64,000 nucleotides of DNA from an uncultured Rhodospirillales bacterium. GTDB lineage: Bacteria; Pseudomonadota; Alphaproteobacteria; UBA9219; RGZA01. The stretch is taken from contig CAZMQI010000004.1 of assembly GCA_964568585.1 (NCBI GenBank), positions 11,312-75,311 on the forward strand, read 5' to 3'. This document shows, piece after piece, positions 10,696 to 59,674 of the stretch. The notes beneath the pieces are model-generated. The model was not told the DNA's origin, made no database searches, and saw nothing but the letters and a program-made list of their open reading frames with translations. Positions within the stretch are counted from its first letter, which is position 1. The number at the start of each line of letters is the position of its first letter. A program made the translations under genes and the position numbers.

Positions 10696-11365
10696 CGGCG
10701 CGAAGGGTTTTCGCACTCTCGCTATCCAACTCGCCCGTTACCATGTGTTGCACATAATGCCGTTGAAATGCACGCAGCGTCGCGTGTAGATTTTCTTCAT
10801 CCATCCCGCAATCATAACCGATTGCCGATAATAGTTTTTCTGCTTCAACCAAACTCATTGGCGCATCATCTTGTGATGTTATGTGCGGCCATACACCAAT
10901 GCCATTTTCCGCCAGCGTTTTCCAATCAAATAACTCCCCTGGGTCTTCCTTACGCAACGGCGCAATGTCGGAATGACCAATGAAAGCAGCCGCTGGCAGC
11001 GTGTATCGTGCTTTGATACCTTGGCACAGTTTCAATACTGCCTGCATCTGCACGTCAGGGAATGCGCGGTAGCCAAATTCATGACCCGGGTTCACAATCT
11101 CGATACCGATGGAATGGGAATTCACATCCACAATCCCGCACCAGAAACTTTTACCGGCATGCCATGCGCGCTTGTGTTCATCAACCAGTGCGAAGACACG
11201 GCCATCCTCTTCGACGACATAGTGTGCGCTGACTTTTGCATTGGCATCACACAGCCGCGCAATCGCCGATGCACCATCCTTCATGCCGGTATAATGCAAA
11301 ATGACCAAGCTAGGCGTATCGCATCCCTTGCGGTCATCGAAATTGGGCGATGGTGTGCTGATCAT
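10679..11365 (-). CDS. amiD: N-acetylmuramoyl-L-alanine amidase (amidase_2, AmpD/AmiD type) with C-terminal peptidoglycan-binding domain
   Basis: Amidase_2 Zn-site context (ILHYTG...AHYVVEEDGRV...WHAG...IGHSDIAP) and PG_binding_1-like C-terminus (ATLRAFQRHYV). Converges on and overlaps the rppH 3' end. Confidence 0.8.
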   Translation of the reverse strand: MISTPSPNFDDRKGCDTPSLVILHYTGMKDGASAIARLCDANAKVSAHYVVEEDGRVFALVDEHKRAWHAGKSFWCGIVDVNSHSIGIEIVNPGHEFGYRAFPDVQMQAVLKLCQGIKARYTLPAAAFIGHSDIAPLRKEDPGELFDWKTLAENGIGVWPHITSQDDAPMSLVEAEKLLSAIGYDCGMDEENLHATLRAFQRHYVQHMVTGELDSESAKTLRAVSRIS

Positions 11366-12189
11366 ACGGCTGTGGCTTTTTTGATTTTGGTATAGGCATC
11401 ATTGATGAGGACAGTTTTCTCCTGCGCGCGCTGTAACGCAAAGGTATTGCGCCCTTGCCAGCGGTCGGGATGAAATTCCTGAATTAGGCGCTTATACGCC
11501 TTGGCCGCTGCGTCAACGCCAGCACCAGTTGGCAGCCCCAATATCTGATACGGATCATATAGCGCATCAGGTAGATAGCCTTTAATCGTAGCTAAAGCTG
11601 CAAAATCATCGGGGTCGTAATTCAACTTGGCCGCGATTTGCTCCAGCGTCGCCATCGTTGCGCGGTCAAGGTGATGATGGCCTTCCACCGCTAAATCCAG
11701 AAGGCATGCCAGCATCGCGTGAAGTTTTTCGGGTTTGCCTGCGCCTTCAATCCGCAATTGCGTCAATGCATAATTCACTTCGGAAGTCGCCGCAGCATCC
11801 GCCGCAACAATACGCCCTATGTAACGCAACGTGGATGCGTTCAGCACATAGGAATTTTTTAAAATAGCGATGGCACGTGCAGGTTTTGAAAGCGCGGGGA
11901 ATGCATAGGCCTTGGCCAGCATCACCAATGCCACGACTGTCGGCGCATCATGCGTCTTGGGTGGCGCAATGGCTTTAGGAGGTGCTTGGTGTTTACCCGA
12001 CAATAAAAATCCCCATACATCAAATGCCAAACCAGCGACAATGCCGATGAATGTGCCCCACACGCCCCAGAATGTGAACGCCGCAAGGCCAACGCCAGCG
12101 CCAATCAGTTTACCCTTATGATGATGATATGGGAAATTTTTTAAACGAATTGCGTTCACTAAATCAAGCTCGTCAGCTGAATGTGCCAA
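11362..12189 (-). CDS. djlA: DjlA-like membrane co-chaperone (N-terminal TM, TerB-like middle region, C-terminal J domain)
   Basis: The C-terminus (DPYQILGLPTGAGVDAAAKAYKRLIQEFHPDRW) is a J domain carrying the HPD motif. Hydrophobic N-terminus. 4-bp overlap with amiD. Confidence 0.7.
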   Translation of the reverse strand: MAHSADELDLVNAIRLKNFPYHHHKGKLIGAGVGLAAFTFWGVWGTFIGIVAGLAFDVWGFLLSGKHQAPPKAIAPPKTHDAPTVVALVMLAKAYAFPALSKPARAIAILKNSYVLNASTLRYIGRIVAADAAATSEVNYALTQLRIEGAGKPEKLHAMLACLLDLAVEGHHHLDRATMATLEQIAAKLNYDPDDFAALATIKGYLPDALYDPYQILGLPTGAGVDAAAKAYKRLIQEFHPDRWQGRNTFALQRAQEKTVLINDAYTKIKKATAV

Positions 12190-12207: not shown

Positions 12208-12915
12208 TTAAACTTCTTTGCTGTAATAGGTGCCGTTGCCGGAATCGAATAATCCGCCATACACCTGATTTAATAGCGCATTGAGACTGCTGCCGCTTTG
12301 TGCACCGGCGCTACCATAGGTGGTTTTCACCGCTGGCTTTTCAATGGTGTCGTAATCTTTTTCAAAGTATTTAGTCGAAGCCAACTGGATAGCGTAATTG
12401 GGTTTTACGGAATCAAGTGTGCCGGTCGGGCGGGTTACTTTGATAAAGTATTGCCCCTTGGCAAGGTTCAAGGTCTGCGCGCCAGCTTTATCGAAATTGT
12501 CTTTCTTTTCGCCAAAGCGCGCTTCGCTATCTGCAATCACGCGGCCTTTGCTATCCAGAATTTGGATGCGTACATCGAAGTCAGTCTTGACCGAGATGCC
12601 TAGGTTTTCTTTTTCTGTCGCATTGAACTTGAAGAAATCGACCTTATCGCCAGTCGTCAACGCGCTTACGATATTGAGGCGTGTCTTACCGCGTGTTAAA
12701 TCGCCAACATTACGTGCGGTGAGTGTACTGTCACCGGTTACGTCGTTTGAATTTTGTTGGAAGTTCTGAATGCGTTTTTCAGAGAGGGGTGTTTTAAGAT
12801 CGTATGGGTCAACTTCAGTCGTGCCCTGCAAGAGCTTGGTCTTGTTGACCTGATACTCCGCTAAAATCAGCGTCAGGTTCACTTTGACTTGTGCAGCTGT
12901 TAATGCTGTCGGCAT
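12208..12915 (-). CDS. hypothetical protein with a PPC (bacterial pre-peptidase C-terminal)-like beta-sandwich domain and no signal peptide
   Basis: 235 aa. The central segment (GDKVDFFKFNATEKENLGISVKTDFDVRIQILDSKGRVIADSE...GQYFIKVTRPTG) follows the PPC-domain pattern. AGGAA Shine-Dalgarno 8 nt upstream. Confidence 0.5.
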   Translation of the reverse strand: MPTALTAAQVKVNLTLILAEYQVNKTKLLQGTTEVDPYDLKTPLSEKRIQNFQQNSNDVTGDSTLTARNVGDLTRGKTRLNIVSALTTGDKVDFFKFNATEKENLGISVKTDFDVRIQILDSKGRVIADSEARFGEKKDNFDKAGAQTLNLAKGQYFIKVTRPTGTLDSVKPNYAIQLASTKYFEKDYDTIEKPAVKTTYGSAGAQSGSSLNALLNQVYGGLFDSGNGTYYSKEV

Positions 12916-14133: not shown

Positions 14134-15297
14134 CTAGGAGATTATGGCATTCGCCACATCGTCAATCAGCCAGCCTTGGTATGAACGTACACCAAGCTTT
14201 TGGCCGAACTGCAACGCTTCTTCGTGGTCACAATGGCTGAAGATGATTTTTTCCGATGGCAGCGTTTTAAGTGCTTCCATTACAGCAGGACTATTCATTC
14301 CCGCCCATTTCTCTTTTGTTACATTGATTTTATAAAAATCGACATTCATACCTTTAAAATTAATGTACGGCAGCACCGATGCCGTGATGCCATCAATGCC
14401 CACATTAAATCCTTCTTCTTTCAATACGTTCAACGCGTTTTGCGTGGTCGTATAATTCAGGAATAATTCGGAGCGATGGATTTCAAAGTTCACCTTGCGC
14501 CGCGCAGGCTTAGATACCGCTTGACAAAACTGTGCAAACACCGATGAAAACGCCGTTTCAACCGACAAATTCAAACTGATGTTCTTATTTTCCCATTGCT
14601 GGGTAAAACTGCCGAGTTCCAGCAACAACTTGCGATCCAGGGAACTGCATAGTTCAAGAAACAACCGTTCCGGCGTATCCAGAATTAATCTGGGAAAACG
14701 TTCACGCTTCAAATCCGCGATGCCGATGAAAAAATCGATTTGCTTTTTTTCCCATACGCCGCGCTCGTCTTGTTTATAAACCGGCTGGGTACGCACATAC
14801 CGCTTGATATCGATTTTATCGAGCAGCAATTCAACCTGGTTCAAACTCCACGCAGTAAGCGGCCCTTGTACATCATGCGCTTGCAACGCTTGCGTCACCG
14901 TTTGAATAGCGCCCATATGTTCGGATGCATTCACCAATTCTACGTATACATTCGCGCGCTGGCGAAGCGCGGTATAATCTTTTGGCAATTCATAAAAGGT
15001 GATGACTTTGTCTTGGTCAGCTTCAGTGGTGACTTCCATCGCAGCATAAAGCGCGGCCTTTAAATCCGCCATCTGCTCTGCGTTATGTACTGGCATCACC
15101 AGAAACAAATCGCCATTGGCCATGGGATAAACTTCGCCGCTGGATTTTCTGACGATGTTCTTGATTGCCGTTTCCACCATATCGCTGGAAACCACATCAT
15201 AATCGACCAGTTTGCGGCGCACATTCACAATCGTGTGCGCGGAATTCAACCGGTTGAAGCGACGGATAAGCAGGATGAAATCTTGTTCGGCAATCAT
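14134..15297 (-). CDS. hypothetical protein with a C-terminal degenerate EAL-like (c-di-GMP phosphodiesterase fold) domain
   Basis: The C-terminal ~230 aa align by eye to the EAL pattern (LSLNLSVETAF...VNFEIHRSEL...LKEEGFNVGIDGI...NVDFYKIN...IIFSHCDHEEALQFGQKLGVRSYQGWL). The EAL, DDFG and EGVE catalytic motifs are replaced. Confidence 0.55.
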   Translation of the reverse strand: MIAEQDFILLIRRFNRLNSAHTIVNVRRKLVDYDVVSSDMVETAIKNIVRKSSGEVYPMANGDLFLVMPVHNAEQMADLKAALYAAMEVTTEADQDKVITFYELPKDYTALRQRANVYVELVNASEHMGAIQTVTQALQAHDVQGPLTAWSLNQVELLLDKIDIKRYVRTQPVYKQDERGVWEKKQIDFFIGIADLKRERFPRLILDTPERLFLELCSSLDRKLLLELGSFTQQWENKNISLNLSVETAFSSVFAQFCQAVSKPARRKVNFEIHRSELFLNYTTTQNALNVLKEEGFNVGIDGITASVLPYINFKGMNVDFYKINVTKEKWAGMNSPAVMEALKTLPSEKIIFSHCDHEEALQFGQKLGVRSYQGWLIDDVANAIIS

Positions 15298-16003: not shown

Positions 16004-19000
16004 TTGACCGTGAACGCTGCCCGCCCTATCTCAAAAAAATCGACAAAAGAATCCAAATCTGCAGCCGTAAAGGATGCCCCAAAGACCGTGAAGGGCAAGT
16101 CGTCGAACCAGACCGTCGCTGCCTCAAAAACCACAAGCGAAATCAAAAAAGTACTCTCGGCACACATCCCTGCCCGTGACCGTACCCAGTTCCACGATCA
16201 TGATTTATCTGCCATCTCGGAAAGCATGGGTTCATTCATTCACGAACGCAAACGCGGCGTGCCAAAACTGCGCGTCCTAAACCCAACCTTGAAGAAAGAC
16301 GGCTATGTCAGCCGCCACACTGTCATCATGGTTGCCAATGACGACATGCCATTCTTGGTAGACAGCACGACGGGTGAATTGAACCGCATGGGTCTGGGCA
16401 TCCATCTTGTCATTCATCCGGTTGTACACATTGTGCGTAATGAGCGTAATCAATTTGAACATTTTGCGGGTAAGACCACCTCCCCCGATGAGCTCAGCGT
16501 TGAATCATGGATGTACATCGAAATCGATGAAACCCATGAAGCTGCCAAGCTTGCGGAAATCGCCGCGAACCTTGAACGCGTCCTATATAATGTTCGTTTG
16601 GCCGTGCGCGATTGGTCGGGCATGCGTACCAAAATCATGGAAACCATCACCGAATTGCCACGCAATGAAACCGTGGGCCTGCCCGCAGGTGAACGCGAAG
16701 AGACCGCGAACTTCCTTGCATGGCTGGAAGCGGATAATTTCACATTCCTTGGCGCGCGCGATTACCACGTCACGGGCACTGGCAAGAATATGCACCTTGT
16801 TACCACGCCCGGCAGTGGCCTTGGTATCCTCACCGACGCAGTATCCGTCATGTTCTTTGGCGAAGAAGGCGAAGGTAGCCAGCCAACCGACATCCATCAT
16901 TTCCTTGAACGCAAACAGCTTGCGCTCATCACCAAGACCTATAAGCACTCGGTGGTTCACCGCACCACGCCAATGGATGCAGTGCTCATCAAACGCTATA
17001 ACGCCAGCGGCAAATTAATTGGTGAACGGTTGTTCGTCGGCTTGTTTACATCATCGTCGTATAATCGTCTTGCCAAGGATGTTCCGCTCATCCGCGAAAA
17101 GATTTCGTATGCGATTGACCATGCTGGCCTTGATCCGCGCAGCTATAACGGAAAAGTATTCACGCATATTCTCAATTCCTATCCGCGTGATGAATTGTTC
17201 CAAATCTCGGCCGCTGAATTGTTGGAAACCGCAATTGGCATTCTGGATTTACAGGAACGCCAACGCCTTGCGCTATTTATCCGTCATGATGCGTTCGAAC
17301 GTTTTGTGAATTGTTTGATTTATGTGCCACGTGATTTGTACATCACCAAATTGCGTAAGGAATTCCAGCGCATTCTGATGAACACGTTCAAAGGTGCCCA
17401 TAGCGATTATAATGTGAAGATTACCAATGAATCCTTGGCGCAGATCTTCATCGTCGTGCGTACCTCCAAGGGTCAAATCCCTACGTACGACCGCGCCAAA
17501 CTGGAACACGAACTGGAAGATGCAAGCCGCGGCTGGTCTGGCCGTCTTCGCAATGAATTGATTGCAGCCTTTGGTGAAAACCAAGGCTTGAAGCATGCCG
17601 AAAAATACTCGGAAAGCTTCCCGGATGCATATTGCGATACCGTGAATGCACATGAGTCCTTACAAGACTTGGCATTCATTGAAGACGTTCTGCAAAACAA
17701 TGCGCTTGAATTGAATCTGTATCGCCCCAGCAAGGCCACGCAAGAACGCATTCACCTGAAATGGTTCTCCCCTAATGTGCCATTATCCTTATCGCTTATT
17801 CTTCCCATCATGCAGGATATGGGGTTGAAGACCAACGCGGTGCTTGGTCCTTACGAAATCAAACCAGCGGGTTCTGAAAAATCGGTATGGATTCAGGATT
17901 GCCATGCGGAAGTAAAACCCGGCATCCCCATTAATCTGGAACGGGTGAAGGCGAAGTTCGAAGAATGCCTGCTTAAAGTCTGGAACAACGAAGTTGAAGC
18001 GGATGCCTATAACCAGCTTATTTTGCTGGCCGATATGAACTGGCGCGAAGTGGTGATTTTGCGCGCGATTGGCAAATACCTTCGCCAAGCACGCCTGCCC
18101 TATTCCGAACAAGCCATCATCCGCACGCTGTCACAGCATCCTGCGGCGGCACGTCTATTGGCGCAATTGTTTATCGCACGTCATAACCCTGAACTGGGTA
18201 AAGAAGGCGCAAAGCTTTCCGCAAAACTTGAAAAAGACATCGCGGAATATCTCAAAGACGTCAGCATGCTGGAAGAAGACCGCATTCTTCGCCGCATGCA
18301 CAATGTTATTCAAAACACATTGCGTACCAATTATTTCCAAAAAGACGAACAGGGTCAGCCGAAATCCTATCTGTCCTTCAAGCTCGACAGCAAGAAGCTG
18401 GATGGCTTGCCACTGCCGCGTCCGCACGTTGAAATTTTTGTCTATTCCCCTCGTACCGAAGCCATTCACTTACGTGGCGGCAAGGTTGCACGTGGCGGTA
18501 TCCGCTGGTCAGATAGACGCGAAGATTTCCGTACCGAAGTCTTGGGCCTTATGAAGGCACAACAGGTAAAGAACACCGTGATTGTGCCCGTGGGTTCAAA
18601 GGGCGGTTTCGTTGTGAAAAACCCAAAACCCGCCGATATGGCGAAGGAAGGCGTTGCCTGCTATCAGATCATGATGCGCGGCTTGCTCGACATCACCGAT
18701 AACCGCGTTGGCGAAAAGATTGTCCCGCCCAAGAACGTAGTGCGCCATGACGAGGATGATCCATATCTGGTGGTTGCTGCTGATAAAGGCACCGCGAAAT
18801 TCTCCGACATCGCGAATGCGTTATCGATTGAATACGGCTTCTGGCTGGGCGATGCGTTTGCATCGGGCGGTTCGGCTGGTTACGATCATAAAGGCATGGG
18901 TATTACTGCACGTGGCGCATGGGAAGGCATCAAACGCCATTTCCGCGAAATGGGCAAAGACATCCAGAAGGAAGATTTCACCGTCGTCGGCATCGGCGAT

Positions 19001-20938
19001 ATGGCGGGCGACGTGTTCGGCAACGGCATGCTGTTATCGCAGCACATCCGTTTAGTCGGTGCGTTCAACCACAAACACATCTTCATCGACCCATCCCCTG
19101 ACAGTGCGAAATCATTCGTTGAACGCCAACGTCTGTTTGATTTACCCGGCAGCCAATGGAGCGATTACGACAAGAAACTGATTAGCAAGGGCGGCGGCAT
19201 TTATAACCGCGATGCGAAGACCATCCCGCTATCCAAAGAAGCGCGTGATTTATTCAACATCAAGACCGACAGCGTGACCCCAGATGCGCTGATACAGGCG
19301 ATGTTGCAAGCCACCATCGAACTGCTCTATTTCGGCGGTATCGGCACCTATATTAAGGCCGAAGACGAAAACGATGCTGATGTGGGCGATCGTACCAATG
19401 ATGCATGCCGTGTGAATGCCGAAAGCGTTCATGCCCATGTGATTGGCGAAGGCGCGAACCTTGGCATGACCCAAAAGGCGCGTATCGCTTACGCCCTTCG
19501 TGGTGGCCGTTTGAATACCGACGCGATTGATAACTCCGCTGGTGTTGATACATCCGATCATGAAGTGAATATCAAAATCCTGCTGGCCCCCGTTGTGGCA
19601 TCGGGCAAGCTGTCGACCAAATCACGCAACGTATTATTGGCGAAGATGACCGATGATGTTGCTGGCTTGGTCTTACGTGATAATCACCTGCAACCACTTG
19701 CACTTACTGTTACGCAATCACGTGCAGCAGAACTCTTGCCCATCCACGCACGCTTGATGCATGCATTGGAACGCAAAGGGCTGTTGAACCGTAAGGTTGA
19801 ATATCTGCCGAATGATGAAGCCATTCAGGAACGCGCAAGACTTGGTAAGGGTCTCACCCGTCCAGAACTCGCCGTACTCATGGCTTACGCTAAAATCGAT
19901 CTGTACGATGAAATTTTGGCCAGCCAATTGCCGGATAACCCTGCCCTTGAAGATGATTTGTTCATCTATTTCCCCAAAGCGCTGCAAACCGAATACGCAT
20001 CGGCCATCCGCAACCACCGTTTGCGCCGTGAAATCATCGCAACCTTCACCACCAATTCATTGGTGAACCGTGGCGGCACGCATCTTATCCAGATGATGCA
20101 GGAAAAAACCGGCAAATCCCCTGCGGAAATCGCGGGTGCCTATGCCGTGCTGCGTACTGTCTATGGCCTTCGCGTCACATGGAATGAAATCGAGAAGCTG
20201 GAAGGCAAAATCGATAGCAAGACCACGACCGAGCTATATACCCGCCTTGCCAAGATGATTGAACGCGCAACGCCGTGGTATGTAAAACATTCCACCATCG
20301 CCAACAGCCAAGCCTTGATTAAAAAGCATAGCGATGCCGTGGTGACCTTACGTAAATGGATGAGCGCACGCGCCGATGAATTCATCACCCGCGATGAAAA
20401 CGAACAACGCGCTTCCGATTTCCGTAAAGCCGGTGTTCCAGCCAAAATCGTGGATGATATTCTGGGTCTGCCCGTTTTGGCGCATATCCCCGAAATCGTC
20501 AGCCTGTCGGAAAAAACCGGCCGCAGCCTTGAAAGCGTCGCGGAGTTATACTTCGCCGTGGAACAACGCTTCCGCATCTTCTGGCTGCGTACGCAGGCAC
20601 GCGATTTATCATCAGAAAACACATGGCAGCGCGAAGCCGCCACCAATCTGATTGATGATTTGTATGATATGCAATCGGTGCTCACCAACCTTGTGCTGCA
20701 AGCGAACGGCAAAGTTGCCCCAGCAGGCAAAGCTAAAGGTAAGGGCAAGAAGGCATCCCCTACTTCATCCAGCAAGGCGAAGCCCGAACAGCTCATCGAA
20801 CATTGGGCGGAACCAAAGACAGACATTGTGCGCCAATATGGTGTGATGCTTGGCGAAATCGCCGCAACACGTCATGCTGATTTCGCGATGCTGAACCTTG
20901 CGCTGCGTCACCTGCAACAACTTGCTTATAAAGGCTAA
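16004..20938 (+). CDS. NAD-specific glutamate dehydrogenase, large (~180 kDa) type
   Basis: 1644 aa. The central catalytic domain has GDH motifs (IVPVGSKGGF, DKGTAKFSDIAN, GIGDMAGDVFGNGML). Size and architecture match large NAD-GDH. The start is ambiguous (TTG 16004 or GTG 16010). Confidence 0.9.
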   Translation: MTVNAARPISKKSTKESKSAAVKDAPKTVKGKSSNQTVAASKTTSEIKKVLSAHIPARDRTQFHDHDLSAISESMGSFIHERKRGVPKLRVLNPTLKKDGYVSRHTVIMVANDDMPFLVDSTTGELNRMGLGIHLVIHPVVHIVRNERNQFEHFAGKTTSPDELSVESWMYIEIDETHEAAKLAEIAANLERVLYNVRLAVRDWSGMRTKIMETITELPRNETVGLPAGEREETANFLAWLEADNFTFLGARDYHVTGTGKNMHLVTTPGSGLGILTDAVSVMFFGEEGEGSQPTDIHHFLERKQLALITKTYKHSVVHRTTPMDAVLIKRYNASGKLIGERLFVGLFTSSSYNRLAKDVPLIREKISYAIDHAGLDPRSYNGKVFTHILNSYPRDELFQISAAELLETAIGILDLQERQRLALFIRHDAFERFVNCLIYVPRDLYITKLRKEFQRILMNTFKGAHSDYNVKITNESLAQIFIVVRTSKGQIPTYDRAKLEHELEDASRGWSGRLRNELIAAFGENQGLKHAEKYSESFPDAYCDTVNAHESLQDLAFIEDVLQNNALELNLYRPSKATQERIHLKWFSPNVPLSLSLILPIMQDMGLKTNAVLGPYEIKPAGSEKSVWIQDCHAEVKPGIPINLERVKAKFEECLLKVWNNEVEADAYNQLILLADMNWREVVILRAIGKYLRQARLPYSEQAIIRTLSQHPAAARLLAQLFIARHNPELGKEGAKLSAKLEKDIAEYLKDVSMLEEDRILRRMHNVIQNTLRTNYFQKDEQGQPKSYLSFKLDSKKLDGLPLPRPHVEIFVYSPRTEAIHLRGGKVARGGIRWSDRREDFRTEVLGLMKAQQVKNTVIVPVGSKGGFVVKNPKPADMAKEGVACYQIMMRGLLDITDNRVGEKIVPPKNVVRHDEDDPYLVVAADKGTAKFSDIANALSIEYGFWLGDAFASGGSAGYDHKGMGITARGAWEGIKRHFREMGKDIQKEDFTVVGIGDMAGDVFGNGMLLSQHIRLVGAFNHKHIFIDPSPDSAKSFVERQRLFDLPGSQWSDYDKKLISKGGGIYNRDAKTIPLSKEARDLFNIKTDSVTPDALIQAMLQATIELLYFGGIGTYIKAEDENDADVGDRTNDACRVNAESVHAHVIGEGANLGMTQKARIAYALRGGRLNTDAIDNSAGVDTSDHEVNIKILLAPVVASGKLSTKSRNVLLAKMTDDVAGLVLRDNHLQPLALTVTQSRAAELLPIHARLMHALERKGLLNRKVEYLPNDEAIQERARLGKGLTRPELAVLMAYAKIDLYDEILASQLPDNPALEDDLFIYFPKALQTEYASAIRNHRLRREIIATFTTNSLVNRGGTHLIQMMQEKTGKSPAEIAGAYAVLRTVYGLRVTWNEIEKLEGKIDSKTTTELYTRLAKMIERATPWYVKHSTIANSQALIKKHSDAVVTLRKWMSARADEFITRDENEQRASDFRKAGVPAKIVDDILGLPVLAHIPEIVSLSEKTGRSLESVAELYFAVEQRFRIFWLRTQARDLSSENTWQREAATNLIDDLYDMQSVLTNLVLQANGKVAPAGKAKGKGKKASPTSSSKAKPEQLIEHWAEPKTDIVRQYGVMLGEIAATRHADFAMLNLALRHLQQLAYKG

Positions 20939-25370: not shown

Positions 25371-25750
25371 TCACCAGATGGCTGGATGGCCGCCTCTTTC
25401 GCAAGATTGGGGAGGAAAGTCCGGGCTCCATAAGATTATGGTGCTGGCTAACGGCCAGCGGGGGTGACCCCAGGGAAAGTGCAACAGAAAGATACCGCCA
25501 ATTCGCTTCTAAGACGGGGGTTTTGGTAAGGGTGAAATGGTGCGGTAAGAGCGCACCGCGTTTTTAGTGATAAAAACGGCATGGCAAACCCCACCAGGAG
25601 CAAGACCAAATAGGGATGGTTGGCTGATCTTACCATTAACCATCCGGGTAGGTTGCATGACATGCGGAGTAATCCGCATGCTAGATGAATGGCCGTCTTA
25701 ACACAGTAAAACGTGCGACGACAAAACCCGGCTTACAGGCCATCTGGTGA
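25371..25750 (+). ncRNA. rnpB: RNase P RNA, bacterial type A
   Basis: Conserved blocks GGAGGAAAGTCCGGGCTCCATAAG, GGTAAGGGTGAAATGGTGCGGTAAGAGCGCACC and ACAAAACCCGGCTTA (P4 halves). P1 is formed by 5' TCACCAGATGGC and 3' GCCATCTGGTGA. Confidence 0.85.
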
Positions 25751-25833
25751 TATTTTAATAAAGATGAAATCCTATACTTTCAATTCCGCGTGATACATTT
25801 GGATGTCGATTTTAATATTTATCGGGACAAATA

Positions 25834-27861: not shown

Positions 27862-28344
27862 ATGTCCCTATTCCTCTCCACCACCACGAATAAAGTCGAT
27901 AAGAAAGGCCGCGTTTCCGTGCCTTCGACATTTCGGGCGGCTTTGGGTGATGATGTTCATCACGGAATTGTGATTTTTCGTTCCTTGCAGGTTGATGCGC
28001 TGGATGCATGTTCGTTGAAGCATCTGGATATTCTTTCCCAATCGCTGGAACGCCTTTCGCTTACCCCTGAAATGTACGAGCTGATTGAAACGACGATTTT
28101 CGGCGGCTCCGTTCAATGCGCGATTGATGCCGATGGCCGCATCATCATCCCCGAACATTTCATGGAAGCCGTTGGCATTGATGATGAAGCAGCATTCGTT
28201 GGCCGCCGCCGCACCTTCCAAATCTGGAACCCGAAGAAATTCAAAGCATTCGAAAACAAGGCACGCGATGCCGTTCGTTCGCACAATATTTCACTTTCCA
28301 AAATCATCGCCGATGCTTCCGCACTGAACGGAGGCGATCAATGA
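27862..28344 (+). CDS. mraZ: transcriptional regulator MraZ
   Basis: 160 aa. Duplicated MraZ/SpoVT-AbrB halves (VDKKGRVSVP ... IDADGRIIIP). First gene of the dcw cluster. Confidence 0.9.
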   Translation: MSLFLSTTTNKVDKKGRVSVPSTFRAALGDDVHHGIVIFRSLQVDALDACSLKHLDILSQSLERLSLTPEMYELIETTIFGGSVQCAIDADGRIIIPEHFMEAVGIDDEAAFVGRRRTFQIWNPKKFKAFENKARDAVRSHNISLSKIIADASALNGGDQ

Positions 28345-29366
28345 GCTTTAGCCATATCCCCGTGATGCTGAAGGAAGTTTTGCAATGGTTGAAGCCAAAA
28401 GCCGAAGGCGTTTATGTGGATGGAACCTTTGGCCGTGGTGGATATAGCAAAGCCATTCTGGAAACGCCAAACACCAGTGTTTACGGCATTGATAGAGATG
28501 CACAGGCGATTGAAGCAGGCCGTGCATTGGAAAAAGATTATGATGGCCGTTTGCAAGTGCTGCATGGCCGTTTTGGTGAAATGGATACATTGCTTGCCGA
28601 TAAGGGTGTTGGCGCGGTGGATGGTGTGGTTCTGGACATCGGCGTTTCATCCCCGCAATTTGATGATGCGGAACGCGGGTTCTCTTTCCGTCATGATGGC
28701 CCGCTCGACATGCGTATGGGTCAAGACGGCCAAAGTGCTGCGGATGCCGTGAACACCCTTCCTGAAAAAGATTTAGCCGACATCGTGTTCAACTTTGGCG
28801 AAGAACGTTTTGCCCGCCGTGTTGCTAAAGCCATTATCGAAGCACGGATGGAAAAGCCCATCACCCGTACCGGCCAATTGGCCACCATCATCCGTGGTGT
28901 GGTGCCATTCGCCAAGGATGGATTGGACCCCGCGACACGCAGCTTCCAGGCCTTACGCATTTACGTGAACCAGGAATTAGACGAATTGAGCAATGGATTA
29001 AATGCTGCTGAAAAGCTTTTGAAGCAAGGCGGATTATTGGTGGTTGTCTCCTTCCACTCCATCGAAGACCGCATCGTGAAGAACTTCATGCGCGAACGCA
29101 GCGCAGGAAAATTTAACGTATCGCGTCATATGCCGATGCCGGTGAACGAGTCGAAACCAGGTCTTCGCATCCTCACGCCAAAACCCATCAGCCCAAGTGA
29201 TGAAGAAGTTTCATCCAATTCCCGCGCGGCTTCGGCACGCCTTCGTGTGGCAGAAAAAATTACCGAAATCCCCAATAGCAATGTGAATACGGAATCACAA
29301 AAACAAAGGACTCCGGCCGGAATCATTTGTGAAGACTCTGAACGCTCTGACACAAAAGGAGAATGA
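28341..29366 (+). CDS. rsmH: 16S rRNA (cytosine1402-N4)-methyltransferase
   Basis: HIPVMLKEVL N-terminus, the SAM-binding motif GVYVDGTFGRGGYS, and DIGVSSPQ. 4-bp overlap with mraZ. Confidence 0.9.
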   Translation: MSFSHIPVMLKEVLQWLKPKAEGVYVDGTFGRGGYSKAILETPNTSVYGIDRDAQAIEAGRALEKDYDGRLQVLHGRFGEMDTLLADKGVGAVDGVVLDIGVSSPQFDDAERGFSFRHDGPLDMRMGQDGQSAADAVNTLPEKDLADIVFNFGEERFARRVAKAIIEARMEKPITRTGQLATIIRGVVPFAKDGLDPATRSFQALRIYVNQELDELSNGLNAAEKLLKQGGLLVVVSFHSIEDRIVKNFMRERSAGKFNVSRHMPMPVNESKPGLRILTPKPISPSDEEVSSNSRAASARLRVAEKITEIPNSNVNTESQKQRTPAGIICEDSERSDTKGE

Positions 29367-29947
29367 TTATGATGGTATTACGCGACGCAATCACCAGAAA
29401 CGCCAAACGCAGCAACTCGTTACAAGTTCTGCTTTTGTGGATTTGCATCATGATCCCTGTCAGTGCATTGCTGTACGGCACCAGTTCGAACGTTCGTGAA
29501 AAAGAAAATCAACTAAGCATCATCAACGCACAAATCGCCGCTGAAAAAGACAGCCTTCGCGTGCTTCGCGCGGAATGGGCGTATTTGAACCAACCACAAA
29601 AGCTTGCATCCCGCGCACAGCGTTATCTGGTCGCCAAGAAAGCTGCCATTCCAGCACAAGTACTTAGCGAACGCCAAATTCCAACCAAGGTCGCTTACCG
29701 CGCTGCGCCATCTGTTGTGGCAAGCAACGTATTGCAAATCCAGCCATCAAGCACCCAGCAGGTTGCGACCCGCTTGCTCGCCAAGCCAATTGTATATGAT
29801 GACCACGCGCTTGCTGCACTTCATACCCAAGAGGATGCGAAACTTCCTTCTGCGGTGACATGGTCACAAAAAGTTGTGAGCGCATTCGGGCTCTCCAATA
29901 ATTTCGTGGCGGGCGAAGCTCAGAATAAAAACCGCTTGGCGCCATGA
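29363..29947 (+). CDS. ftsL: cell division protein FtsL (alphaproteobacterial type, extended C-terminus)
   Basis: A single TM (VLLLWICIMIPVSALLY) followed by a coiled coil (ENQLSIINAQIAAEKDSLRVLRAEWAYLNQPQKL). Sits between rsmH and ftsI. Confidence 0.75.
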   Translation: MIMMVLRDAITRNAKRSNSLQVLLLWICIMIPVSALLYGTSSNVREKENQLSIINAQIAAEKDSLRVLRAEWAYLNQPQKLASRAQRYLVAKKAAIPAQVLSERQIPTKVAYRAAPSVVASNVLQIQPSSTQQVATRLLAKPIVYDDHALAALHTQEDAKLPSAVTWSQKVVSAFGLSNNFVAGEAQNKNRLAP

Positions 29948-31719
29948 GTCTACTCGGGAGTTTCTTGGGCTTTCTTAATTCAAAGCCAACCCCACCCTCT
30001 CGCCCTGCACCCGCATACCCTGCATATCCCACATTAAACGCTGGTTGGAATACGCAGCATGGCCGCAGCTTTGCTGCCGCACTCCCCGCTTTGGAAAAAG
30101 CCCGTGGCCGCCTCGTTATCATCGGCATCTTCTTTATCCTACTCTATTTGTATGTCGTGGCTGGCCTGTTCGACACGATGATTTTTAATACCGATACGGA
30201 ATTGAAAAACGCCACGCCTGCGCCGGAACCTGCCATCGTAAGCCGCGGGGATATTGTGGATCGCAATGGCGAATTGCTGGCCACCTCGCTTCAAATGGCA
30301 TCGCTTGCCGCAGACCCTGCCTTAATCATTGATGCGAATGATATGATTAAAAAACTAAAGTCCGTGTTTCCGGATTTGAATGGGCCAGATATTTTAAAAG
30401 AGATGAACAGCAAAAAACGCTTCATCTGGATAAAGCGCAATCTATCGCCCAAACAACAGGATGCGGTGAATGCACTTGGTATTCCTGGCCTTTCATTTGA
30501 GCCGGAAGAAAAGCGGTTATATCCAAAGGGTTCCCTTACCGCACATATCACCGGATATAGCAGCGTTGATCACACAGGTATCGCAGGCTTAGAAAAAACA
30601 TTCGATGCGTTTTTAAGGAAAAAGAACCAGTCACTTACCCTTGCGCTCGATATTCGCTTACAAAACATTATGCGTGACGCGCTAGCCGAAGGGATTAAGA
30701 CCTTTAGCGCGCTGGGCGGTGCCGGCGTGATTATGGATATCCATAATGGGGAAATCCTCTCCATGGTATCCCTGCCCGATTTCGACCCCAATGACATTAA
30801 TAAAGCCAATGATAATGCGCGGTTTAACCGTGCATCGCTTGGTATTTATGAAATGGGCTCGACATTTAAGACGTTTACGCTGGCGCAGGCACTGGACCGC
30901 GGCGCCATTAGTATCTCCAGCAGTTTTGATTGCACCCACCCCATCTCCATCGGCCGATTCAAGATCAACGATTATCACCCGATGCATCGCTGGCTTAACG
31001 TGCCGGAAATTTTCCTCCATTCATCCAACATCGGCGCCGTGCAAATTGTCGAGAAAATTGGCATCACCGCGCAGCGCGAATTTTTGGGCAAGCTTGGTCT
31101 TTTGAAACAAACTTCAATCGAAATACCTGAAGTCGGTAAGCCGATGATTCCAGCCGATTGGCAGGAAATCAGCATGATGACCGTGTCATACGGCCATGGT
31201 ATTTCGGTAAATGCTGTGCAACTGGCAAGTGCCGCCGCCAGCGTGCTGAATGGCGGGACATTGGTCACCCCCACCCTGATCAAGCGCGACCCGTCCATTC
31301 CATTGCCGCAAACACGCGTGATTTCAGAACATGCATCGAATGTGATGCGCCAGCTTTTCCGTGTGGTGGTCACGGCTGGTACAGGTAAATCGGCGAATGT
31401 CCCAGGGTATGTGGTGGGCGGCAAGACCGGTACCGCCGATAAGCAATCCGGCAAAGGATATAAGAAGGATGCGCGGCTTTCGTCCTTCCTTGCCGCTTTC
31501 CCGATGAACGACCCCAAATACGTTGTGTTCATCATGATTGATGAACCCAAGGGAACCAAGGAAAGCTATGGCTTTGCGACAGGGGGCTGGGTCGCTGCCC
31601 CCACGGTTGGACGTGTTATTTCGCAAATTGCACCCTTGCTAGGGATTAGCCCAGTGGATGATAATGATACTAGCATCACTGAGAAGTTGCGCCTGCCGAT
31701 ACCGGTTAAGGGCGAATAG
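29944..31719 (+). CDS. ftsI: peptidoglycan D,D-transpeptidase FtsI (PBP3)
   Basis: N-terminal TM, dimerisation domain, and transpeptidase motifs (STFKTFT, SSN, KTGTA). Confidence 0.9.
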   Translation: MSLLGSFLGFLNSKPTPPSRPAPAYPAYPTLNAGWNTQHGRSFAAALPALEKARGRLVIIGIFFILLYLYVVAGLFDTMIFNTDTELKNATPAPEPAIVSRGDIVDRNGELLATSLQMASLAADPALIIDANDMIKKLKSVFPDLNGPDILKEMNSKKRFIWIKRNLSPKQQDAVNALGIPGLSFEPEEKRLYPKGSLTAHITGYSSVDHTGIAGLEKTFDAFLRKKNQSLTLALDIRLQNIMRDALAEGIKTFSALGGAGVIMDIHNGEILSMVSLPDFDPNDINKANDNARFNRASLGIYEMGSTFKTFTLAQALDRGAISISSSFDCTHPISIGRFKINDYHPMHRWLNVPEIFLHSSNIGAVQIVEKIGITAQREFLGKLGLLKQTSIEIPEVGKPMIPADWQEISMMTVSYGHGISVNAVQLASAAASVLNGGTLVTPTLIKRDPSIPLPQTRVISEHASNVMRQLFRVVVTAGTGKSANVPGYVVGGKTGTADKQSGKGYKKDARLSSFLAAFPMNDPKYVVFIMIDEPKGTKESYGFATGGWVAAPTVGRVISQIAPLLGISPVDDNDTSITEKLRLPIPVKGE

Positions 31720-31749
31720 ATTTAAAAAGCACGTTATAAAGTTTGGCAT

Positions 31750-33192
31750 ATGAAGATTTCGGAAATTGCAACAGGCTGCGCGGTCAGCGGCGAAGATAAA
31801 GACATCACTGGCTTGGCTCAGAATTCGAAAGCTGTTGCGTCCGGTTTTTTATTCGCAGCATTGCAAGGCGAGAACGTCGATGGCCGCGATTTTATTGACG
31901 CCGCGATTGCCGCAGGTGCGAATGCGGTGCTGGCACAAACCGGAACCAATATTCCAAATTCAGTTACCGCGATTACGCATGATGAACCCCGCCTCGCCTT
32001 AGCGAAAATCGCTGCGAAGTTTTATAAGGTGCAGCCCAAGACGATTGCAGCAGTGACAGGTACCAGCGGCAAGACATCCACCGTACAATTCGTGCGCCAG
32101 CTTTGGCAGATGCTGGGACACAAAAGCGCCAGCGTTGGAACACTGGGCATCATTGGTGACGGAATTGAACGTTACGGTTCGCTGACCACGCCTGATAGCA
32201 TTACATTGCATCAGGATTTGGCGATGCTGGCGCTGGATAAACGCATCACGCATCTGGCAATGGAAGCATCCAGCCACGGATTAGAACAATACCGTTTAGA
32301 TGGCGTGAATGTTACGTTGGCAGCGTTCACCAACCTGTCGCGTGACCATCTGGATTATCACAAGACAATGGAAAGCTATCTAAAAGCGAAGCTTCGCTTG
32401 TTCAACGAGTTACTGCCAGCGAACGGTACAGCAGTTGTCAATGCCGATATGGCGGAGTTTGCGGAAATTTCTGCCGCAGTGCGCGCGCGCAATATCAAAA
32501 TGTTATCGTATGGCACCAACGGCAACGAAGTGCGTTTGGAAAAACGAACCTTCAACGCACATGGTCAGGATTTAGAATTAAAGGTATTGGGGAAAAAAGT
32601 TTCAACGCATATCAATCTGGTCGGTGCGTTTCAGGCTGCGAATGTTTTATGTGCCTTGTCACTGGTCATCGCCAGCGGCGCGGACGCGAAGAAAGCCATT
32701 GAATGTTTGCCAAAATTACAACCGGTTCGTGGCCGCATGGAATGGGTTGGCGAATATAAGGGTGGCGCGGTGTATGTTGATTACGCGCACAAGCCCGACG
32801 CATTGGAACAGGTATTACAGGCCTTGCGCCCGCACACACAAAACCGCCTGATTTGTGTATTTGGATGCGGCGGCAATCGTGATGCGGGCAAACGCCCCAT
32901 TATGGGAAGTATCGCCAAGACATTCGCCGATGTTGTGATTGTAACGGATGACAACCCACGCAATGAAGATGCGGCAAGCATCCGCAAAGCGGTAATGGAA
33001 GGCGCAAGTGGAGCAACCGAAATTGGCAACCGCAGCGATGCGATTGCAGCGGCACTAAATATGATGTGTGCTGGGGATGTAGTGGTGATTGCAGGTAAAG
33101 GCCATGAACAAGGCCAGATTATCGGCACGCAGACATTGCCGTTTGACGATGTGGCGGTTGCCAAAAAAGTAATGAATGGAAGAGCAGCATGA
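31750..33192 (+). CDS. murE: UDP-N-acetylmuramoyl-L-alanyl-D-glutamate--2,6-diaminopimelate ligase
   Basis: Mur ligase P-loop VTGTSGKTST and the DNPR motif (VTDDNPRNED) that marks DAP-adding MurE. Confidence 0.9.
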   Translation: MKISEIATGCAVSGEDKDITGLAQNSKAVASGFLFAALQGENVDGRDFIDAAIAAGANAVLAQTGTNIPNSVTAITHDEPRLALAKIAAKFYKVQPKTIAAVTGTSGKTSTVQFVRQLWQMLGHKSASVGTLGIIGDGIERYGSLTTPDSITLHQDLAMLALDKRITHLAMEASSHGLEQYRLDGVNVTLAAFTNLSRDHLDYHKTMESYLKAKLRLFNELLPANGTAVVNADMAEFAEISAAVRARNIKMLSYGTNGNEVRLEKRTFNAHGQDLELKVLGKKVSTHINLVGAFQAANVLCALSLVIASGADAKKAIECLPKLQPVRGRMEWVGEYKGGAVYVDYAHKPDALEQVLQALRPHTQNRLICVFGCGGNRDAGKRPIMGSIAKTFADVVIVTDDNPRNEDAASIRKAVMEGASGATEIGNRSDAIAAALNMMCAGDVVVIAGKGHEQGQIIGTQTLPFDDVAVAKKVMNGRAA

Positions 33193-34595
33193 GTAGTAGT
33201 TTGTGGATTAGTAGCGATATTGCCAAAGCGACCAAGGGAACCTGTTCTGGCCTATGGCGCGCCAATGGCGTTTCAATCGACAGCCGCAGCGTTGCACAAG
33301 GCGATTTATTCATCGCATTAAAGGGCCCAAATTTTGATGGCCATGATTTCGTTGCTGGCGCGATTGCTGCGGGCGCAAGTGGCGCGATTGTAAGCGCCAT
33401 TCCAACAGGAGTATCCGCCGATAAATGCGTAGTAGTCGCGGATGTGTTCAAAGCATTACATGATTTAGGCCAAGCTGGCCGCAACCGCAGCCGTGCAAAA
33501 ATTATCGCTGTCACAGGTTCGGTTGGAAAAACCGGATGCAAAGAAGCCTTGCGCCAAGTATTGACCGCGCAAGCCCCGGCTTACGCGAACGAAGGAAGCT
33601 TCAATAATCATTGGGGCGTTCCATTAAGCCTTGCACGCTTGCCGCAAGATGCCGAATACGGCGTATTTGAATTGGGCATGAACCATGTAGGCGAACTTGG
33701 TCCCTTATCGCAGCAAGTACGCCCCGACATTGCGCTAATTACCAATATTGCACCGGTACATATCGGCAATTTCAATTCATTAGATGAAATCGCAACTGCA
33801 AAAGCGGAGATATTCGAAGGATTTTCAAGTAACGGTCACGTTGTGTTGAACGCTGATAATAGTTACGTGGAATTTTTAAAACAGCGCGCTATCCATTTTG
33901 GAATTAATGCCATCGCCACCTTTGGCGAAAAAGGCACCGAAGCGCGATTGGAAAATTGTGTATTAAAAAGCGACACCAGCGATGTGACCGCCATTCTGTT
34001 CGGCAAAAAAATTAATTACACCGTTGGTGCGCCGGGCATGCATTGGGTTACCAATTCATTGGCTGTATTATTATGTGCAGGATTGGCAGGCGCGGATGTG
34101 GCAAAGGCCGCGCAAAGTCTAAGCACACTGGCCTTGGCGCAAGGACGCGGCACCCCGCAGCAGATATCTATCTCCAATGGCAGCATCACGTTAATCGATG
34201 AAAGCTATAATGCCAGCCCTGTTGCCGTTGATATGGCCATTCAGGTCTTGGGTAATAAAGAGCCCAAGGGCAGACGCATTTTGGTGTTGGGTGATATGCG
34301 CGAGCTTGGCGAACATTCGCAAACATCCCATGTTGCATTGGCCAAACCCATTAAGGATGCTGGGATTTCTAGCGTTTTTTGTTGCGGCGAGCATATGAAG
34401 CATTTGTTCGACGCATTGCCGGATGCGATTCGTGGCGGCTACGCCTTCACTAGCGCGGAGCTTGCACCAATCGTTGCAAGTGCGGTGCATGATGGCGATA
34501 TGATTACGGTCAAGGGTTCGAAGAGCGTGGGCATGCAAAAGGTCGTGGATGCGCTATTGAACCTTGATATCTCTAAAACCAAAAAAGCTGGATAA
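33189..34595 (+). CDS. murF: UDP-N-acetylmuramoyl-tripeptide--D-alanyl-D-alanine ligase
   Basis: Mur ligase motifs (VTGSVGKTG). Sits after murE. 4-bp overlap with murE. Confidence 0.9.
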   Translation: MSSSLWISSDIAKATKGTCSGLWRANGVSIDSRSVAQGDLFIALKGPNFDGHDFVAGAIAAGASGAIVSAIPTGVSADKCVVVADVFKALHDLGQAGRNRSRAKIIAVTGSVGKTGCKEALRQVLTAQAPAYANEGSFNNHWGVPLSLARLPQDAEYGVFELGMNHVGELGPLSQQVRPDIALITNIAPVHIGNFNSLDEIATAKAEIFEGFSSNGHVVLNADNSYVEFLKQRAIHFGINAIATFGEKGTEARLENCVLKSDTSDVTAILFGKKINYTVGAPGMHWVTNSLAVLLCAGLAGADVAKAAQSLSTLALAQGRGTPQQISISNGSITLIDESYNASPVAVDMAIQVLGNKEPKGRRILVLGDMRELGEHSQTSHVALAKPIKDAGISSVFCCGEHMKHLFDALPDAIRGGYAFTSAELAPIVASAVHDGDMITVKGSKSVGMQKVVDALLNLDISKTKKAG

Positions 34596-34598
34596 TCA

Positions 34599-35687
34599 AT
34601 GCTACATCTGTTGCTTAGCCCCTACGCTAAAGAATTTATTTTTTTCAATTTGTTCCGTTACATCACGTTCCGCACGGGCGCGGCGATTTTAACAACGCTG
34701 CTCCTCGCCTTCTGGCTTGGCCCGAAACTCATCCGCTGGCTGAAAAGCAAACAAGGCGAAGGCCAGCCTATTCGTGAAGATGGCCCAGAAACCCATTTCG
34801 TTAAAAAAGGCACGCCGACCATGGGCGGCGTCATCATTCTGGTGCCGTTCTTCATCGCGGCTTTGTTATGGGCGGATTTAAGCAATGCTTATGTTTGGAT
34901 CGTGTTGTTCGTCACGCTTGGCTTTGGACTTGTCGGATTTGCCGATGATTATTTGAAATTAACAAAGCGCAACACAAAAGGCGTTTCGGGGCGCATGCGC
35001 CTTTCCATTCAAGCGGCGGTTTCGGGTATCGCAGCCTATTTCGTCAGCATGCAGGCAACGCCGGAACTCGCCAACACGCTTGCATTACCGTTCTTCAAAG
35101 AAGCGCTTATCCCGCTGGGCATTGCACTATTCATCGTCTTCTCCGTGCTGGTGATGGTTGGGGCTGCTAATGCCGTCAATTTGACCGATGGATTGGATGG
35201 ATTAGTAACCGTTCCGCTCATTCTATCGGCAGGAAGTTTTGGGCTTATCGCGTATCTGGTGGGCAATGTCGATTTTGCAAAATATCTGCAACTGCATCAC
35301 GTACCGGGAGCTGGCGAGATGCTGGTGCTATGCGGGGCATTGATTGGGGCATGTCTGGGCTTTTTATGGTTCAACGCACCGCCTGCACAGGTGTTCATGG
35401 GTGATACGGGTTCGCTTGCCCTTGGCGGTGCGATTGGCAGCATTGCGGTGATTACCAAGCATGAAATCGTACTTGCGATTGTCGGCGGGTTATTTGTCAT
35501 TGAAACCCTATCGGTCATGTTACAAGTGGCGAGTTTTAAATTGACTGGTAAGCGCATATTCAAGATGGCGCCCCTGCATCATCATTTTGAAAAATGCGGA
35601 TGGTCGGAACCGACTGTAGTTATCCGGTTCTGGATTATCGCGTTCATTTTTGCATTGATTGGTCTTGCCACACTAAAATTACGGTAA
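34599..35687 (+). CDS. mraY: phospho-N-acetylmuramoyl-pentapeptide-transferase
   Basis: 10-TM protein with MraY motifs ([23 protein letters not shown]). Confidence 0.9.
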
Positions 35688-35690
35688 ACC

Positions 35691-37076: not shown

Positions 37077-37086
37077 GAAAGCCGCC

Positions 37087-39368: not shown

Positions 39369-39382
39369 GTCAGGCCCGTTTG

Positions 39383-42023: not shown

Positions 42024-42024
42024 T

Positions 42025-42966: not shown

Positions 42967-42972
42967 CGCTGC

Positions 42973-43824: not shown

Positions 43825-43835
43825 CGGATTAGCCA

Positions 43836-58549: not shown

Positions 58550-59674
58550 TTAATTGGCAGCAACGCTATCTTCAAAGCCGCTCGAATCAAGGTCATCGAA
58601 GCGGTCGGCATCTTTACCTTTGCCATCCATCAGTTTGGCCATGGTCACGCTATCCAGATCCTGCACCACCACACGGTTGCGGCCAGCGGCTTTTGCCAAA
58701 TACATACCGGCATCCGCGCGTTTCAGGAAATGCGAGAGCTGTTCATGGTTATGATATTGTGCAACACCGATTGATACAGTCACCTGACCAATCGTCGCAT
58801 GGGTATCACGGCGGATAATCTTCTTTTGTGATACGGAGGTGCGAAGCGCATCGGCCACGCGCTGGGCATCGAGCAATTTGGTTTGCGGCAATACAATCAC
58901 GAATTCTTCGCCGCCATAACGCGCCACGCAATCTTTACCCTTCAGATTTTCCATGAGCGTACGTGCGACAAGCTTTAACACCTGATCGCCGACCAAATGG
59001 CCGTGGGTATCGTTGAATTTCTTGAAATGATCGATATCAATCATCAATACGCTAAGCGCGGATTTCTGTTCTTCGGATTCCAGCACAAGGCGCTTTAATT
59101 CATTGCTTAAGTGCTTGCGGTTGCCAACACCCGTCAATGTATCGGTGAGCGTTTCTTTTTGAACGCGCGTCAAATCTTCCTTCATCACGCTCATCTGCGC
59201 GGATGATTTTTCAAGCTGTTCCTGCAATTGCTGGTTCTTGGTAGCAATCGATTTGGTTTCGGTAACCACCTTGTTCACCGCGATGCGGATTTCTTCAACC
59301 GATAACGGCTTGTTCATGTGCGATGTGAAGCCGTTCAAGGTTTCATTGAATTGCTGAGTACCCTCATTCGCGGTGGAGATTAAATCCATCACTTTCGCCA
59401 GCTCTTCGGATAGCTGCTTCACGTTATTCTGCAGCACTTCTTTTTCTTTATCTGCGCCTAAATGCTTGTCGTAAATCGCGCGCGCTTGTTCGGCAGTAAA
59501 ACCGCCACCGCGCACCGCGCCATCCACCAGATCTTTAATCTGCGGCAAGCGGCCAGAAACATAGGCATACAGCAATTCGAAATTCTGCGGAGTTGCAGGA
59601 AGGCCCAAGAATTCCAGACGCAACATAGTTGCCTTGGAATATTCAGCGGCTTTTTGGATGGAATCTTCGAACAT
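58550..59674 (-). CDS. GGDEF-domain diguanylate cyclase with N-terminal coiled-coil region
   Basis: The C-terminal domain carries the active-site motif RYGGEEF and the upstream DxLT-type motif (DTLTGVGNRKHL). No RxxD I-site 5 residues upstream of GGEEF. Confidence 0.8.
   Translation of the reverse strand: MFEDSIQKAAEYSKATMLRLEFLGLPATPQNFELLYAYVSGRLPQIKDLVDGAVRGGGFTAEQARAIYDKHLGADKEKEVLQNNVKQLSEELAKVMDLISTANEGTQQFNETLNGFTSHMNKPLSVEEIRIAVNKVVTETKSIATKNQQLQEQLEKSSAQMSVMKEDLTRVQKETLTDTLTGVGNRKHLSNELKRLVLESEEQKSALSVLMIDIDHFKKFNDTHGHLVGDQVLKLVARTLMENLKGKDCVARYGGEEFVIVLPQTKLLDAQRVADALRTSVSQKKIIRRDTHATIGQVTVSIGVAQYHNHEQLSHFLKRADAGMYLAKAAGRNRVVVQDLDSVTMAKLMDGKGKDADRFDDLDSSGFEDSVAAN

Follow-up and report, generated by a model that had tools for sequence, protein, structure and literature searches.

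What does a protein do when it has the fold of a cyclic di-GMP (c-di-GMP) phosphodiesterase and retains only part of the active site? The question is raised by a gene at positions 14134..15297, on the minus strand, of a 64,000-nucleotide stretch of contig CAZMQI010000004.1 (positions 11,312 to 75,311) from an uncultured Rhodospirillales bacterium; this whole stretch is referred to as the window. The product combines a GGDEF-like domain, recognised by its fold, with a divergent EAL-like domain in which the first metal site (M1) appears to be kept and the second (M2) lost. The reading that we rank first, with a probability of roughly 0.4, is that of a cytoplasmic sensor that would bind c-di-GMP and one metal ion, hydrolyse the messenger little or not at all, and act through partner proteins.

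The gene and its family

The open reading frame (ORF) is complete, with 387 codons and a stop codon. Judging by the ORF list, the homologs and hydropathy, it encodes a soluble two-domain protein; there is no hydrophobic segment (maximum Kyte-Doolittle 19-residue mean, 1.08). A word-indexed protein search returned 95 full-length homologs with 31-100% identity and 98-100% query coverage, nearly all of them 385-420 residues long. This is a real, conserved gene. When one genome per species is scanned, the gene turns up at 70 different loci; every one is from a metagenome-assembled alphaproteobacterium, and the labels include Micavibrio, ‘Bdellovibrionales’, ‘Rhodospirillaceae’ and ‘Geminicoccaceae’.

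For a view of the wider family, an exhaustive profile search was run over 1.84 billion cluster representatives (50%-identity clusters). At E<=1e-30 it returned 420 representatives, a number that rises to 943 at E<=1e-10, and in most of them the profile was matched from end to end. A second search, seeded with distant members, gave at least 831 proteins, including some from the cultured Rhodospirillales Telmatospirillum sp. J64-1, Aestuariispira insulae, Ferrovibrio and Aliidongia. The only database names attached to these second-search members are ‘EAL domain-containing protein’ and ‘hypothetical protein’, and for many of them a precomputed Pfam match is absent altogether. The family is large, alphaproteobacterial and uncharacterised; we found no publication on it in the literature on Micavibrio and c-di-GMP or on degenerate EAL receptors. 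The ‘EAL domain-containing’ label was already in the databases; the cryptic GGDEF-like domain, the apparent M1-only site and the size of the family appear to be new.

In the Rhodospirillales branch, the family is often represented by two adjacent paralogs of 416 and 424 residues, with abutting start and stop codons, followed by an ABC-2 transporter pair. One such pair lies at 275-1525 and 1525-2799 of locus L079, and a JGI contig also carries an adjacent pair. Locus L059 has two to three copies, and one protein of 712 residues (P0118) is a fused double copy. In the upstream paralog of L079, Pro replaces the residue corresponding to Q374 and V-E replaces C-D (numbering and roles are given below). 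The adjacent paralogs suggest that a ‘complete’ subunit pairs with a more degenerate one in a hetero-dimer.

The EAL-like domain and its pocket

An EAL-like C-terminal domain had been proposed in a first-pass annotation made by eye, and a hidden Markov model (HMM) search bears this out: PF00563 is matched at E=2.7e-11, with 43.7 bits against a gathering score of 31.3, over profile positions 58-233 only. On the evidence of this match, the fold and conservation, the domain comprises residues 146-387 (14137..14862, minus strand). Structural comparison leads to the same assignment. The domain has the modified TIM-barrel fold of the EAL type, its best structural neighbours are c-di-GMP-bound EALs, and the best Foldseek matches over both domains are the GGDEF-EAL proteins MorA (4rnf), PA0575 (5m3c), RbdA/PA0861 (5xgb) and DosP (9bgv), with E-values of 7e-15 to 1e-11. 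At the sequence level, the PDB matches are RbdA and 5yrp only. The first third of the domain, which holds the base-contacting EAL strand, is unrecognisable in sequence, and a sub-profile of residues 146-262 searched against the PDB found no EAL.

Which active-site residues remain can be read by reference to two studied proteins. In RocR, the intact catalytic (‘A-site’) positions are E175, N233, E265, E268, D295, K316 and E352, and the further c-di-GMP recognition positions are Q161, R179, D296 and D318 (PMC2952852). The M1 ligands of PA3825 are Glu39, Asn98, Asp130 and Asp160, and its M2 ligands are Asp161 and Asp183, plus Glu217 in the Ca2+ complex (PMC5301497). Residues in the last two thirds of the EAL-like domain were mapped with HMM and profile-profile alignments to RbdA, MorA, PA0575 and MucR (sequences from PDB alignments) and to E. 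coli PdeK, PdeL and PdeH. Columns were counted in 62 close and 162 wide-family sequences; the counts below refer to the latter.

Much of the pocket is retained. RocR N233 corresponds to N243 (kept in 159/162), E265 to E272 (acidic in 161/162), D295 to D302 (159/162) and the catalytic lysine K316 to K323 (161/162), while the base-position acid E352 is represented by D357 (Asp in 137 and Glu in 20 of 162). Q171, the counterpart of RocR Q161, is kept in 160/162 sequences, and Q374, the glutamine of the C-terminal QG that is completed by G375, in 161/162. To judge from these columns, the kept pocket residues are under strong purifying selection.

Other positions have gone. The second aspartate of DDFG, RocR D296, is G303 here; the family has Gly in 130/162 sequences and otherwise Ser, Arg or Ala, never Asp. 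The KxD aspartate, RocR D318, is N325 (Asn in the close clade, variable in the wide family), and RocR E268 is R275, a position that likewise varies across the wide family. The M2 site, as defined by the second DDFG aspartate and the KxD aspartate, has been lost. The DFG(T/A)GYSS form of loop 6 is missing as well: the loop reads D-G-I-T-A-S-V-L-P-Y and not D-D-F-G-T-G-Y-S-S, with a family consensus of D-G-[IV]-T-P-D-M-L. Among the seven RocR A-site positions, then, N243, E272, D302 and K323 are kept, D357 stands in for E352 and D188 for E175 (the latter mapping is ambiguous), and E268 is lost. The first-pass annotation had described the EAL, DDFG and EGVE motifs as all substituted. The literal strings are indeed gone, but each motif still has its most important residue. 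The pattern is specific: the losses fall on the M2 site and loop 6, and what is kept comprises the apparent M1 site, the lysine and the base-position acid.

Three further positions are conserved in this family although they have no canonical role. D221 is invariant (162/162); an acid at 277, two residues past the lost E268 position, is present as Asp or Glu in 157/162 sequences; and C356 (nt 14230-14232), which adjoins D357 and replaces the valine of V-E in EGVE, is Cys in 138/162. A second cysteine, C217 (nt 14647-14649), is invariant in the close clade and Thr in the distant clade. A redox or metal role for C356 and C217 is conceivable.

The counterpart of the EAL-motif glutamate is the least certain part of the mapping. 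Residue 188 is acidic in 160/162 sequences (Glu in 148, Asp in this protein) and lies in the model near the C-terminal end of the second hairpin strand (182-191), the place expected for the EAL glutamate. With this choice the motif becomes [E/D]-[F/Y]-[F/Y]-x-[S/G], and the arginine of ExLxR is lost (G192 here, Ser or Gly in the family). Three hhalign profile alignments, made against the EAL sequences from PDB alignments and from E. coli K-12, all place instead A194-D195-L-K-R198-E-R-F-P202 on E-A-L-L-R-W-x-H-P and leave residue 188 in a nine-residue insertion. Wide-family conservation is poor at 194 and 198, with Arg at 198 in 60/162 sequences, and residue 195 is acidic in 125/162. Because of its conservation we favour residue 188, and the ExLxR arginine has probably been lost.

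The N-terminal domain and the linker helix

The same annotation had called the protein ‘stand-alone’ and left the N-terminal ~150 residues unassigned; at the fold level, both points are superseded. Residues 1-104 (14986..15297, minus strand) have the palm (ferredoxin-like) fold of GGDEF/nucleotidyl-cyclase domains, with topology alpha0-beta1-alpha1-beta2-beta3-alpha3-alpha-beta4, and the protein is a tandem of degenerate GGDEF-like and EAL-like domains. On the model, residues 1-104 would be a truncated, catalytically dead GGDEF-like domain. This assignment comes from fold comparison only, not from sequence: in a Pfam scan of 28 members there was no PF00990 match even at E<=10, only noise (including one GGDEF_2 match at 0.039), and hhalign of the domain against seven real GGDEF domains gave a non-significant E=0.19. 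That match, the only one to GGDEF sequences, places the beta2-beta3 hairpin M-A-N-G-D-L-F (residues 59-65; 15103..15123, minus strand) on R-x-GGEEF. The hairpin thus lies where GG(D/E)EF would be, and in place of the active-site motif its translation reads A-N-G-D-L. M59, G62 and D63 are invariant among close homologs, and D63 is found in 149/162 wide-family sequences.

Helix alpha0 carries an invariant R-R-x-x-R (R12-R13-x-x-R16; nt 15250-15264), which we take to be a possible vestige of the N-R-R that precedes GGDEF domains. In some members a regular expression for the PilZ domain, RxxxR...DxSxxG, falls on this helix; we regard it as a chance motif and do not propose a PilZ domain.

A long helix joins the two domains (residues 105-139; 14881..14985, minus strand), as seen from the translation and from helical secondary structure at 108-139. 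It opens with a conserved motif, L-P-x-D-Y-x-x-L-R-E-R-A-N-x-Y, in which the close clade shows no variation at P105, Y108 or R112. Model confidence is low at residues ~125-150.

Comparison with known systems

The structural matches include the active GGDEF-EAL phosphodiesterases MorA, PA0575, RbdA and DosP, to which identity is 12-18%. The Asn, Glu, Asp, Lys, acid and Gln of the family align with their catalytic residues. In these enzymes the EAL, DDFGTGYSS and EGVE motifs are intact and two metal sites are present, whereas the M2 ligands, loop 6 and the E268 equivalent are missing here. EALs of the YkuI type, which keep the catalytic residues but have a degenerate loop 6, are reportedly grouped as ‘class II’ in the Rao/Liang classification. 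YkuI keeps the second DDFG aspartate and the ExLxR arginine, and it has a C-terminal PAS-like domain, not an N-terminal GGDEF-like one.

The cytoplasmic module of LapD (S helix-GGDEF-EAL; PDB 3pjw/3pjx/3pjt, 6pwj/6pwk) is among the closest known systems. A non-catalytic GGDEF plus EAL tandem, as in LapD and FimX, is present here at the fold level only. LapD sits in the membrane and carries periplasmic LapG-binding and HAMP domains; the protein described here is soluble and starts directly with the GGDEF-like domain, which is ~55 residues shorter than that of LapD and carries no GGDEF sequence signal. In LapD, Lys replaces the EAL glutamate and R450 is kept at the centre of the site, while in this family the acid is apparently kept and a conserved arginine appears to be missing; in the off state of LapD, the GGDEF domain caps the EAL pocket (PMC3032553). 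FimX, another degenerate GGDEF-EAL receptor for c-di-GMP (PDB 3hv8, 4foj, 7lkq), has additional REC and PAS domains, and a Pfam scan of our protein found no domain besides EAL. FimX is entirely without the DDFGTG metal-binding motif (PMC5301497), of which this family keeps the first aspartate, along with the other candidate M1 ligands.

E. coli CsrD, which is independent of c-di-GMP, likewise joins a degenerate GGDEF to a degenerate EAL domain; it is membrane-anchored, unlike this soluble protein. It provides the only NCBIfam match (NF008281, E 2e-4), at 19.7 bits against an equivalog cutoff of 663. An hhalign comparison reaches a probability of 51% across just 116 columns, in which N243 and D302 are paired with Gln and Asn of CsrD. 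With a score so far under the cutoff and differing pocket residues, we rejected orthology to CsrD. YdiV has lost most of the residues that coordinate c-di-GMP (PMC3510510). The combination seen in the anti-FlhDC factors YdiV/RflP, an EAL-like fold with lost nucleotide-site residues, does not describe this protein; no similarity to YdiV was detectable by profile comparison and the pocket is conserved in this family, and a scaffold of the YdiV/RflP kind was set aside as the leading interpretation.

What the protein may do

The gene, the two folds, the conservation of residues and the size of the family were established directly; from here on, what the protein binds, its supposed lack of catalysis and its mode of output are inferred. 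The loss of the second DDFG aspartate, the KxD aspartate, the counterpart of RocR E268 and loop 6 makes a canonical two-metal phosphodiesterase unlikely and a role in binding c-di-GMP reasonable. A pure scaffold like YdiV or CsrD also seems unlikely, because those proteins have lost pocket residues that this family has kept over long evolutionary distances. Since, in addition, the overall module appears to resemble the c-di-GMP receptors LapD and FimX, a c-di-GMP sensor ranks first. In such a sensor, the EAL pocket would bind c-di-GMP together with one divalent cation and turn it over little or not at all, so that the messenger would be sensed and not cleared. A ligand-dependent shift in the arrangement of the GGDEF-like domain, helix and EAL-like domain, or in dimerisation, would pass the signal on, and the output would run through protein partners because the protein has no output domain of its own. 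The earlier proposal of a candidate c-di-GMP receptor is thus partly supported, and is qualified by the tandem architecture, the apparently retained M1 site and the replaced recognition residues.

Several points weigh against a sensor. The argument that an inactive EAL is a receptor loses force when the protein is a degenerate GGDEF-like/EAL tandem and not a stand-alone EAL. The apparently full M1 set, with the lysine and the base-position acid, would fit an enzyme better than a pure binder; LapD and FimX neither need nor keep metal ligands. Because three of the four RocR recognition residues, R179, D296 and D318 (PMC2952852), are replaced, c-di-GMP is a putative ligand only. The counterpart of the EAL glutamate is ambiguous, with conservation and strand position indicating 188 and profile alignment 194/195, and no conserved residue appears to correspond to LapD R450: position 192, the candidate by strand position, is Ser or Gly, and R198, the candidate by profile alignment, is Arg in only the 60 sequences noted above. 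Finally, the gene neighbourhoods differ among clades and give no functional pointer, and near the gene no promoter, terminator or riboswitch signal stands out.

The alternative that fares best is an active hydrolase of c-di-GMP, using one metal or family-specific substitutes for M2 (D221 and D/E277), possibly only after activation or dimerisation. We see this as a real, if distinctly smaller, possibility. An atypical enzyme stays in consideration because residues of catalytic type are retained: the candidate M1 ligands, K323, D/E357, Q171 and Q374 are near-invariant across the wide family, and of the seven A-site positions of RocR, six carry the same residue or a conservative substitute. RocR activity is not abolished by mutations at R179, D296 and D318 (PMC2952852). 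The extra acids D221 and D/E277 could supply what M2 has lost, and the tandem paralogs and the fusion of two copies point to obligate dimers like those of active EALs.

Rather unlikely, in our estimate, is an EAL-derived pocket with changed specificity that binds or cleaves another phosphodiester ligand (pGpG, another cyclic di- or oligonucleotide, or a non-nucleotide). Residues for metal and phosphate chemistry are kept while R179, D296 and D318 are replaced, D221 and C356 have been newly fixed or nearly so, and the first third of the domain, including the base-contacting strand, cannot be recognised in sequence. Against this, nothing speaks positively for any other ligand; the glutamines at 171 and 374, essentially invariant here, are c-di-GMP contacts in canonical EALs; the closest structures are EALs with c-di-GMP bound; and no linked cyclase or synthase was seen apart from GGDEF proteins.

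A bolder proposal, and a long shot, is a one-metal EAL-derived enzyme or receptor that handles either a phosphodiester messenger other than c-di-GMP, or c-di-GMP itself with D221, C356 and D/E277 in place of the M2 site, and that has the cryptic GGDEF-derived domain as a built-in regulator. If true, this would add to the EAL superfamily a new functional class, found widely among Rhodospirillales and Micavibrio-like Alphaproteobacteria.

We give least credence to a ligand-independent protein-interaction module like YdiV/RflP or CsrD, in which both folds are scaffolds only, since the YdiV precedent, the weak match to CsrD as the sole NCBIfam hit and the missing output domain are set against pocket residues nearly invariant over a large evolutionary distance, unlike those of YdiV and CsrD.

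Genomic context

A GGDEF diguanylate cyclase with an intact GGEEF motif, also pointed out in the first-pass annotation, is encoded at 58550..59674 on the minus strand (sequence ‘...ARYGGEEFVIVLP...’); the Pfam GGDEF profile is matched over its full length at E=7.2e-46. Its gene is 43 kb from the EAL-like gene, with no genetic linkage. GGDEF genes are found near homologs of the EAL-like gene at other loci too, and together these genes indicate that c-di-GMP is made in the lineages that carry the family.

The EAL-like gene has a RidA/YjgF-like gene upstream and a TauE-type permease gene downstream, with a divergent NAD-glutamate dehydrogenase gene and cell-envelope genes nearby. This order is kept in the closest clade only; in other clades the upstream gene is DJ-1/PfpI or a putative trpF, and distant family members lie in unrelated contexts. 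Near the EAL-like gene we found no convincing promoter or terminator, and no match to a riboswitch or any other Rfam family. In the whole window, Rfam is matched only by a bacterial RNase P RNA class A (25374-25751, plus strand, 322 bits) and one tRNA (61477-61558, plus strand).

Divergent from the RidA/EAL-like pair is an ORF of 1644 residues (16004-20938, plus strand), whose syntenic counterpart in locus L002 has the full Pfam set of an NAD-specific glutamate dehydrogenase. On the other side, an ORF of 235 residues (12208-12915, minus strand) gives a weak match to the PPC (pre-peptidase C-terminal) beta-sandwich. Homologs with one to three PPC repeats (about 200-580 residues, Ser/Thr-rich, no obvious signal peptide) adjoin the EAL-like gene in 27 of ~62 loci, either co-directional after TauE or convergent with the EAL gene and abutting it; the two genes may be functionally linked, or the arrangement may just be old synteny. 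The next gene downstream of the PPC-like one, conserved there in the closest clade, encodes a protein of 275 residues (11362-12189, minus strand) that has a DnaJ (J) domain at its C-terminal end and, in its N-terminal part, a hydrophobic stretch rich in Gly. Farther away, a long same-strand run of ORFs of 300-590 residues (~28341-47360, plus strand) gives the impression of a cell-division/cell-wall (dcw) cluster.

In Aestuariispira insulae (locus L078; 5218-5898 and 2942-5062), the gene immediately upstream of the family member is a Peptidase_C93 gene, and a PAS-HD_5 protein is encoded nearby. Peptidase_C93 is a LapG-like transglutaminase-like protease. With tblastn this protease was found beside no family member other than that of Aestuariispira, and because it is seen at one locus only we treat a LapG link as probably a coincidence.

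Implications

For the window itself the practical result is modest: the gene is better annotated, and its description as a stand-alone, fully degenerate EAL protein is corrected. The wider interest lies in the family. Degenerate GGDEF-EAL proteins are a main bacterial route for reading c-di-GMP, and few of their architectures have been studied (LapD, FimX and CsrD-like proteins). This family, with hundreds of 50%-identity clusters in Alphaproteobacteria and an EAL domain that Pfam misses in many members, pairs a profile-invisible GGDEF-derived domain with an EAL pocket that apparently keeps the first and not the second metal site. Study of the family could tell whether EAL sites with one metal only bind, act as slow ‘trigger’ enzymes or have a new specificity, and it could improve automated calls of ‘active’ and ‘inactive’ EAL domains.
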